The translations under genes and the position numbers were made by a program. DNA of 63,482 nt, counting the filler, from Stramenopiles sp. TOSAG23-6 (lineage: Eukaryota): the NCBI GenBank assembly GCA_900128565.1. It is 7 parts of 7 records of this genome, joined end to end, with 100 filler letters (N's around TTAATTAATTAA, not from the genome) between each part and the next. Parts side by side here need not be neighbours in the genome. Positions count along the whole stretch, not along the records: positions 10,384 to 20,644 come from LT636324.1; 6 more parts are not named here. One strand, 5' to 3'. Below, piece after piece: positions 10,501-12,634 of this stretch (its first letter is position 1; each line of letters opens with the position of its first letter). The notes under the pieces were generated by a model that was not told the DNA's origin, did no database searches, and saw nothing but the letters and a program-made list of their open reading frames with translations.

Positions 10501-12634
10501 TACATGAACGTTATACTACTTTTGATATTTGTTGTTGCTTCAATTCATTTCCTCAATAATATTTTATTGTATGTTTTCACCAATATTCTAATTGGGGTCG
10601 CTGATAAGCGCTTACTTTCTCTAGTGTTCCTCATAGCAACAGCAGTATTATCAGCATTTCTTGATGCGCTGACAGTTGTTGCTGTCGTGTCAAGTGTTTG
10701 TACTGGCTTCCTTGGTGTGTATTATCACGTTGTAAACAAAATCAGTCTTCCTCAATTACAGTGTAAAACTCATCTTACAAATAAAAGTTCGGAAGTATCT
10801 AATAGTATTTTTTCCCATCAAGTTCCAAATAGTGAAGACGTGAAGTTATTAATTTCTGAAAATAGTGATATACCAACACCATGTTGCTCTCCACATTACT
10901 GTACGTACGTTTTTTATTTACATTCCAAATGTATTTTTTTTTTCATACAAAATTCCGTACCTAAAAAATTTCAAATGTTTGAAATATTTTTTCTTCAACA
11001 TAAAATCTCCAAAAGTAAATCAGAATAAAATATCAATTTCACCTAGCCGTTCTCTTAAAAGCAAGAATAAACAAACTCCAGGGCAGTCATCAAATGCAAA
11101 TAATGAATGTTTGTTTGATGAAATAGAGCTTGGGCAATTGAACACTACAAAAGGTAAAACAAATAAAGACCAGAAAATAAATGAAAAAACCTTAAAAAAT
11201 ACAGTTCAAATGGAATCAAGTGGTATGAAACGGATACCTTCCCTAAAACAAATTCTTAATGATGAAATTTGCCCTCCTGAAATACCTCGGGAAAATAAGT
11301 GTTTGAATAAAATACGCCGTCAGGAAATTCAAAATAATATCGAAGATTTCAAATCATTTTTACGATCTCTCATGTACGTTTTCATTTCAATTTCGAATTG
11401 TTTTTTCATACGGAATTTTGTACCTAACGATTTTTTTTTGAAATATTTTTTCATAATCCATGTACGTTTTCAAACTCTAACCCTATTCAAAAGAAAATTA
11501 GCAAATTGTGCACCTAACAAAAAATTTGAATGTAAAATATTTGTATGATCTTTCATTATGCACAGTGCAGTAGGTACCGTTTGTGGGGGTATTACCACTA
11601 CCGTTGCTGAGCCACAAAATTTAATCATTTCAGATCGTTTAAATTGGGGTATGATTGACTTCTTTCTGAAGTTACTTCCTGTATTTTTTATTGTTTTTCC
11701 TACAACTTGTCTAATGTGCGTATTCTTGGAACATAAAAAATGTCTTGGTTACGGAGTTAAAATGCCACCAAAAGTTCGTATTGTTCTTCAAGAGTTTGCA
11801 GATCAAGAGCTCAATAAGCTAGATGATGTGTTAAAAGCGGAGTTATTCATACAATGTATTGGTGTTGTTATTCTTTGTGTTGGACTTGTTTTGCATGTAC
11901 GTTTTCCAAAATTATTATTTTTTTTCGTATGAAATTTTGTACCTAACCAAAAAAAATGTTCTTATGAAAAAGAATATTTTTCCACAAAACATATTGCTGA
12001 AGTTGGTTTCATCGGATTACTTGTACTTGTATTTGTAACGTCATTAAATGGAATTACTGATGAACGCGATATAGCGCATGCTTTTATGGATTCAATGCCA
12101 TTCGTTTCACTCATTGTTATTTTTTTCGGTGTGGTTGCGATAATTCATGTCCGTTTTATTTTTTAAATTTCAAATTTATTTGTTTTATACGAAATTTTGT
12201 ACCNAANAAAAAANGTACAAAAAAANTATTTTTTNACACTATACGATCAAGAATTATTTAATCCAATTATTTCGTGTGTTCTTTCCATGAATGATAAATA
12301 TCAACCTGCCGTTTTGTATACCATAAATGGAGTTCTTTCGACAGTTTCAGATAACGTTTTTGTAGCAACAGTATTTATTGATGAAATAGTTAAAACGTAT
12401 AAAGATGGTACTATTAATGATGAACAATTTGAACGTCTTGGAATTGCACTGACTGCAGGAACAAACTTACCTTCAATGGCAACTCCAAATGGTCAAGCTG
12501 CATTTTTGTTTGTCTTAACTTCAAGTATTGCTCCACTAGTCAATTTAACATATCGTAAGATGTGTATCATGGCTTTACCTTACACTGTGGTTGTCACATT
12601 TGCAGGATTATTTAGTGTTCTGTTTTTGATTTAG
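10501..12634 (+). CDS. nhaB: NhaB-family Na+/H+ antiporter, intron-containing, 5' incomplete
   Basis: LSAFLDALTVVAV, FLRSLI|MHSAVGT..AEPQNLII, LH|IAEVG, IH|DQELF, SDNVFVATVFI, GTNLPSMATPNGQAAFLF, MALPYT. Introns 10905-11001, 11374-11556, 11897-11992, 12149-12244. Confidence 0.9.
10905..11001 (+). other. Family intron GT-AT
   Basis: AC|GTACGTTTT...CAACAT|A AAA; links the two NhaB ORFs in frame. Confidence 0.7.
11374..11556 (+). other. Twin family introns (11374-11461 + 11462-11556)
   Basis: CTC AT|GTACG...ATCCAT|GTACG...TTTCAT|T ATG; gives FLRSLIMHSAVG. Confidence 0.8.
11897..11992 (+). other. Family intron GT-AT
   Basis: LH|IAEVG restored. Confidence 0.85.
12149..12244 (+). other. Family intron GT-AC
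   Basis: CAT|GTCCGTTTT...CTATAC|GAT; IH|DQELF. Confidence 0.75.

Follow-up and report, generated by a model that had tools for sequence, protein, structure and literature searches.

A long repeated motif as a plausible branch site in introns that mostly end in AT, in a stramenopile whose U1 snRNA matches their donors

Mass use of acceptors other than AG is known from few lineages, Fritillaria and Amoebophrya. The yeast-type branch box, TACTAAC, is read by the GUAGUA of U2. The intron family described here, from Stramenopiles sp. TOSAG23-6, resembles the yeast arrangement in its CTAAC core, its GTATGT-like donor, and a candidate branch 30 to 45 nt from the intron end; unlike the yeast box, it has one extra C (TACCTAAC), a 20-nt repeated core around the box, and an acceptor that is not YAG. 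According to the accessible part of a recent preprint, U1 changes that match donors are known from very few lineages, namely, Entamoeba, Mastigamoeba, and, partly, Physarum; the U1 snRNAs of Entamoeba and Mastigamoeba balamuthi co-evolved with their donor sites, and the Entamoeba U1 gains extended donor pairing (bioRxiv 10.1101/2022.06.08.495308). As in those amoebae, the 5′ end of U1 has changed here to fit a pyrimidine at donor position +4, and the Mastigamoeba U1 shares the word ACGUAC with the U1 of our organism. Unlike those systems, as that part of the preprint describes them, here three changes fall in one U1, with C9>A facing the last exon base, T at -1, and the donors are those of a repeated family of introns that mostly lack AG ends.

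Other described systems share different features with this family. In the available sections of the report on Fritillaria borealis (PMC13326754), introns are removed by the major spliceosome, no minor snRNAs were found, 3′ ends are often AT or AC, a YAY triplet stands before the donor and at the acceptor, and a transposon origin is discussed, all of which has a parallel here. In Fritillaria, however, AG is the usual donor, the U1 copies all share one 5′ end, and the change came through m6A and duplicated U2AF, whereas we find GT donors and a changed U1 sequence, and U2AF was not found in an incomplete assembly. Introners, as presented in the portions of two papers open to us (PMC9860276 and PMC7789003), are likewise many similar short introns in marine protists, with a direct repeat at the junction and short inverted ends; their target repeat is 3 to 9 bp, compared to a putative one of 2 nt here, where the inverted ends are 3 to 4 bp and the acceptor is mostly AT. 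For Physarum polycephalum, mass intron gain from a DNA transposon with a 2-nt target has been proposed, and an snRNA has changed to match the introns, as here (bioRxiv 10.1101/2020.10.12.336362, accessible part). There, the donors are RTATCYTT and the changed snRNA is U12; in our organism, GTAYGT donors go with an unaltered U2, and searches of the incomplete assembly recovered no minor snRNA. Blastocystis, in the sections available, has 253 minor introns, of which 77% are AT-AC and 49% are in phase 0 (PMC10639083). Our search of the literature, largely of freely accessible main texts, found no genome-wide GT-AT family with a changed U1.

The window, that is, the whole stretch of 63,482 nt that was analyzed, strings together contigs that are unrelated to one another, each about 10 kb long, with N linkers in between (10284-10383, 20645-20744, and later runs), and neighbors across linkers are not true neighbors. 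The 13-mer TTTTGTACCTAAC, at 11416-11428 on the plus strand, had been flagged as an extended branch point, possibly of a variant U2 or a rewired minor spliceosome. Its recurrence is real. It has 28 matches at no more than one mismatch in the window (16 exact), compared to 0.13 expected, and 7,547 exact copies in its own 21.1-Mb assembly, compared to 1 for a reversed control, although unique copies are fewer because the assembly contains duplicated contigs. The 13-mer is the 3′ part of a 20-nt core that continues upstream as TACGAAAT. Conservation was measured on 153 introns selected by their two ends alone, of which 146 have the core. The best-kept block, TACCTAA, is retained at 96 to 100% per position, its last A at 100%; the first five core positions are kept at 73 to 90%, the preceding TTTTG at 84 to 97%, and the final C at 88%. 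Thus, the most invariant block does contain CTAA, but the C that the original prediction placed at its end is less constant. The seven picks without a core comprise two apparent false picks, one with N, two worn cores with CCTAAC, one with CTAAA only, and one without any core. This last, coreless family copy, whose splicing is putative, lies on the minus strand of L049. A 21-mer of the family had no exact match in public metagenome contigs, a search that may leave out near relatives. The CCTAAC of the core is also a piece of the telomere-type repeat TTAGGG/CCCTAA, short internal runs of which occur in introns, exons, and spacers (window 16798, 20199, 21611, 27700, 52184, 52759, and 53606).

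The family unit is about 98 nt long (GTAYGTTTT...core...TTTTTCMMAATAC-NN), lies in coding sequence, usually between two ATs, and has a 3′ part made of a T-tract, CMMAATAC, and two bases. In about 0.8 Mb (the window plus fetched contigs), 393 core matches gave 371 distinct copies, 215 of which passed the end filters; 128 of these had a single open frame on both sides and could be tested. Removal of the unit restored the frame in 114 of the 128. These 114 end in AT (93), AG (8), TT (4), GT (3), AC (2), or another dinucleotide (4). The family introns would work like U2 introns yet form a noncanonical class, since only 8 of 114 end in AG. Phase-0 introns are indeed common, with phases 0, 1, and 2 represented by 48, 31, and 35 of the in-frame copies. 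Similar introns are numerous and sit at unrelated sites, as is characteristic of introners; the focal intron, for one, has a counterpart on a different contig, with 94% identity across 89 nt. Candidate ends AT, GC, or GA in place of GT at the donor were seen at L021 ~760 (-), L029 ~1340 (-), L011 ~6830 (+), and L091 ~870 (+).

The sole U1 found starts with AAACGUACAUG instead of AUACUUACCUG; across the 5′ region, the Rfam consensus reads AUACUUACCUGG and this genome AAACGUACAUGG. Its alignment to the Rfam model (E = 2.7e-12, 54.1 bits) falls under the gathering score of 69.5. The 5′ end is the exact complement of CAU/GUACGUUU, which is the focal donor (the slash marks the exon-intron boundary), and the three changes (U2>A, U5>G, and C9>A) all fit the donor consensus, including exon position -1. 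Among 212 donors selected without regard to positions -1, +4, and +7, compared to a background of 187 sites, T stood at -1 in 185 (background, 99), C or T at +4 in 199 (background, 129), and T at +7 in 204 (background, 98). At +4, the pairing with U1 would be G-C in 87 donors and a G-U wobble in 112. For the 114 donors of in-frame copies, the mean number of Watson-Crick pairs out of 11 was 9.3 with the organism's own U1 and 7.0 with the Rfam consensus, and the former paired better with 112 of the 114, a figure biased by the choice of donors by likeness. The predicted pairing of the donor with the genome's own U1 is that of a U2-type intron. A pattern search for a second, canonical U1 returned the known U1 twice and four sites without an Rfam match. 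The suspicion of a changed snRNA was well placed, but the changed molecule is U1, matching the donor; a rewired U2 or U12 is not supported.

Few introns outside the family are available for comparison. Candidate ordinary GT-AG introns were noted in the window at 14486-14375 (-) and 9236-9337 (+), both with GTACGT donors, and at L018 ~4183 (+), with a GTAAGT donor and ACTAAC; this rare GTAAGT donor fits the changed U1 worse. Nonfamily introns were considered as a control for the branch box and set aside, as too few of 24 candidates were credible.

The other major snRNAs look standard. U2 was found at two identical places, with the canonical GUGUAGUA; U6 has the standard ACAGAGA, and loop 1 of U5 is canonical. 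U5, U2, U1, and U4 form a cluster of about 640 nt on G000:C1146, with a duplicate on C6122. A family intron is present on the contig of the cluster as well, and another on the separate contig where U6 lies. The four clustered genes share one strand and follow each other head to tail, separated by 2, 23, and 5 nt (L001 / L095 9-645); they are possibly transcribed as one precursor, since these gaps are too tight for separate promoters. U2 would pair with the focal motif through CUAAC only (4 bp, -1.4 kcal/mol), unless a C is bulged, and the long motif is therefore not an extended match to U2. CUAAC set against the canonical GUAG of U2, with a bulged A, is nevertheless the predicted branch pairing of a U2-type intron. 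A changed acceptor loop in Prp8 was considered and rejected: residues 1503-1572 of the human chain, which we take to be the stretch contacting the acceptor, differ at two positions only.

The sequence evidence makes the motif a plausible branch site, because it lies on the sense strand of introns, in a fixed zone before the 3′ end, and its candidate branch A is unchanged in 146 of 146 cores. The same A is kept in 26 of 26 diverged cores, in which the T at -2 of the branch box drops to 81%. The distance from this A to the intron end has a median of 38 nt (32 to 55, inside a filter of 28 to 56) and is 34 nt in the focal copy, in agreement with the roughly 30 to 45 nt noted before. What survives of the original branch-point reading is this plausible role; its attribution to a variant U2 or U12 is not supported.

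The organism is present in seawater metatranscriptomes, and runs in which its share is small were left out as evidence. An RNA contig from run X4 matches L062 perfectly at 2456-2554 and at 2300-2355 and leaves out the 100-nt GT..AT copy between them, and RNA contigs from run X1, of another study, skip 62-nt GT..GT and 169-nt GT..AT copies in L062. The L062 gene with these three skipped copies is a proteasome gene, distinct from the focal NhaB gene. The three joints do not fix the register, because they sit in direct repeats, and they could stem from intron-less alleles. For the discordant RPN6 junction (AA/AT), there was no RNA joint among those listed. Most other listed joints were artifacts in which intron copies were joined to each other. 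High RNA depth over introns was not taken as expression, because many copies are summed.

The predicted focal intron interrupts a eukaryotic gene whose family, the NhaB antiporters, is bacterial (Table 1); its product has about 170 residues inserted between positions 175 and 207 of the profile. Four of its five exon pieces match PF06450, at profile positions 94-175, 207-319, 320-370, and 372-499; exon piece 11006-11371 had no PF06450 match. Profile positions are continuous across two introns (319 to 320 and 370 to 372). No exon separates the two tandem units, and the frames join once both, 183 nt in all, are taken out. The units may be spliced stepwise (recursively), because removal of the first unit rebuilds a CAT/GTACG donor.

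Table 1. Family introns, cores, and related features in the window
Feature	Position	Strand	Remark
NhaB-family antiporter gene pieces split by family introns	10501..12634	+	Pfam PF06450
Family intron in variable NhaB insert	10905..11005	+	Ends uncertain by a few bases; predicted end off frame
Donor region CAT/GTACGTTT, 11/11 complementary to 5′ end of own-genome U1	11371..11381	+	
Focal intron of the family (88 nt, GTACGTTTT...CCAT), leading unit of the tandem pair in NhaB gene	11374..11461	+	Ends by family pattern
Family core of 20 nt, a near-palindrome followed by TACCTAAC; the A at 11427 is the candidate branch	11409..11428	+	Branch use putative
Second unit of the tandem pair (95 nt, GTACGTTTT...TTCAT), with the variant core GCACCTAAC	11462..11556	+	
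Family intron GT..AT between PF06450 positions 319 and 320	11897..11992	+	
Family intron, GT..AC if residue at profile position 372 is kept	12149..12244	+	Holds N
Family intron ending AG, universal stress protein gene	13568..13667	+	Holds N
Perfect core without family donor/acceptor, ~160 nt past stress protein stop codon	14081..14100	+	

In 79 of the 114 in-frame copies, the dinucleotide that closes the exon recurs at the end of the intron, and in eight of the 79 it is not AT. This agreement fits a 2-nt target duplication. Two DDE_Tnp_4 genes were found in the assembly, and neither could be tied to the family. At L124 ~497-3590 (G000:C2432, four identical contigs) there is a PIF/Harbinger-like element of two genes, a DDE_Tnp_4 transposase and a Myb-like frame that converges on it; the element has TAA repeats and inverted ends, and a short family-like copy lies between its genes. 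We rejected it as the source of the family's movement, because the family differs from it in both the ends and the target repeat (3 nt in the element). Small elements starting with TAC(C)GGCCAC and carrying core variants were also noted (L013 1935-2370 and L128 ~1500-1590).

Since AT stands at the exon end and the intron end alike in most copies, the U12 form, AT..AC, must be taken seriously as an alternative to the GT..AT register; in 71 of 114 in-frame copies, the AT repeat at both ends permits either reading. Comparison of sequences favors GT..AT. Shifting the register by -2 brings in a stop at 2 of 35 discordant junctions (both AG-ending), compared to 0 in the GT register. In phase-1 introns, exon position -2 is the third base of a codon, and a base other than A occupies it in 14 of 31, compared to 18 of 83 introns of the other phases (P = 0.019). 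A conserved L in a DEAD-box helicase (all three alignments shown) and an I in a carboxyltransferase (2 of the 3 alignments shown reach it) are retained in the GT register only; a register test on a DBP5-like exon yielded no structure match at E = 0.001. That these are transformed U12-type introns, in the AT..AC register or served by a rewired U12, as in Physarum or Blastocystis, is most improbable, even though the accessible parts of the literature describe a co-evolved U12 with transposon-like minor introns in Physarum (bioRxiv 2020.10.12.336362) and phase-0 minor introns in Blastocystis (PMC10639083), so that phase does not exclude it. The ends are not those of U12-type introns (GT-AG or AT-AC), as 93 of 114 are AT in the GT register, the RNA joints being ambiguous. 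The donors, GTAYGTTT, are complementary to U1 in the normal register and bear only a weak likeness to the U12 donor RTATCCTT, with RTATCCT present within 120 nt upstream of 3 of 392 cores. U11, U12, U4atac, and U6atac gave nothing at E ≤ 1 in the same incomplete assembly that yielded all five major snRNAs (41 to 50 candidates scored per search; changed forms could be missed). The minor-specific proteins PF18036 and PF14968 were not found there, and neither were the major factors SF1, U1-70K, and U1C. For U2AF35/ZRSR2, two degenerate patterns gave only spurious matches, two of which were assessed solely by the letters that matched, and the 23 zinc-finger matches in this incomplete assembly included none that resembled U2AF35. 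The missing minor snRNAs and proteins are therefore weak evidence, and the protein check that the original prediction had suggested says little in either direction. Excision without any spliceosome, guided by pairing of the ends or a hairpin in the core, is a very remote prospect. The ends do form short inverted repeats (GTA...TAC), and most acceptors lack AG, but the inverted repeat is 3 to 4 bp only, the core palindrome shows no covariation or compensatory change in 302 copies (four Fisher tests, P = 0.17 to 1.0), U1 matches the donor at 11 positions, and 8 of 114 copies with the same body end in AG.

The remaining alternatives accept the major spliceosome but read the motif differently. One can envision a second, unassembled U2 paralogue whose pairing region, resembling GUUAGGUAC, reads the whole motif, which is far more uniform than 4 bp with standard U2 would require. 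SF1, U1-70K, U1C, and U2AF35 likewise escaped detection in this incomplete assembly, and GUUAGGUAC occurs in it at 137 sites in a nontypical context, compared to 79 for the control; these 137 GTTAGGTAC sites leave some room for such a gene. We nonetheless regard it as highly unlikely, given that a canonical U2, without that word, adjoins the changed U1, that six further U2-like seeds (of 118 listed, about chance level) had no Rfam match, and that copying accounts for the uniformity. Those 137 sites aside, the snRNA that the original prediction had proposed did not turn up in the incomplete assembly, and the U2 that did is canonical. Less easily dismissed, although still unlikely, is a core that serves mainly as a DNA-level site for a transposase or host protein, with the branch elsewhere, e.g., at GAAATAT about 20 nt from the end, and with U1 and the major spliceosome still removing the intron. 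The core is a near-palindrome of two GTAC words, and it also occurs outside introns: 30 of 381 strong matches lack both family ends, compared to 0 to 3 matches in controls, although some of the 30 are shadows or cut copies. Several intron-less cores lie between convergent genes, an inverted pair lies about 390 bp apart in L013, and in L128, one core sits within an 88-bp element whose ends are short and inverted. Six cores fall inside long reading frames (L105 1169, L076 5424, L079 7257, L090 4042, L082 769, and L078 7643), and the five that are antisense keep CTAA. Moreover, RNA skips a 62-nt copy and one with TACTTAAC, and one copy is coreless. Against a DNA site stand the unequal retention of the two halves and the A residues at -21 to -19, kept at 79 to 81% only. 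The antisense copies in open frames all share one frame (an xSLGTK-like peptide), which fits old antisense insertions detected via their core. These are probably old insertions turned coding, and old insertions found in this way explain much of the core occurrence outside introns.

We think it probable, on balance, that these are introns of the major spliceosome with a transposon-like origin, standard branch pairing, a co-adapted U1, and an AG-independent acceptor. The motif would then be the branch-site box of a transposon-like family. The changed U1, its expression putative, would pair with CAU/GUAYGUUU in the normal register, the standard ACAGAGA of U6 could pair with the GUAUGU of the donor, and standard U2 would pair with CUAAC, bulging the last A. 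The rest of the long motif may be uniform through family copying, without being read by any snRNA. The acceptor would be set by the second T-tract and the adjoining CMMAATAC word rather than by the first YAG: between the candidate branch A and the intron end, an earlier YAT occurs in 127 of 146 core copies and an earlier YAG in 17 of 146, which makes this probable. The active site presumably tolerates U opposite G+1. Copies may have arisen by insertion with a 2-nt target duplication; because this would mostly be AT, the exon end and the intron end would both read YAT.

More speculatively, an AT-duplicating element may have taken over nearly the whole intron set, after which the single U1 changed at three positions and CAU/GU...YAU replaced CAG/GU...YAG, with the motif doubly used, as an RNA branch site and as a protein-bound DNA site required for the element's movement. 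We offer this history tentatively, as a possibility that we would not bet on.

What would be new here is a changed U1 together with mass non-AG acceptors, both tied to one mobile intron family. At a practical level, standard gene finders will misread this genome. U1 changes that match the starts of mobile introns are a rare sign of mutual adaptation between the splicing machine and an intron family. If the reading is true, the organism offers a natural test of two questions: whether a core snRNA can be reshaped when transposons drive intron gain, and how an acceptor is chosen at the second step without AG while the core of Prp8 keeps almost the human sequence.
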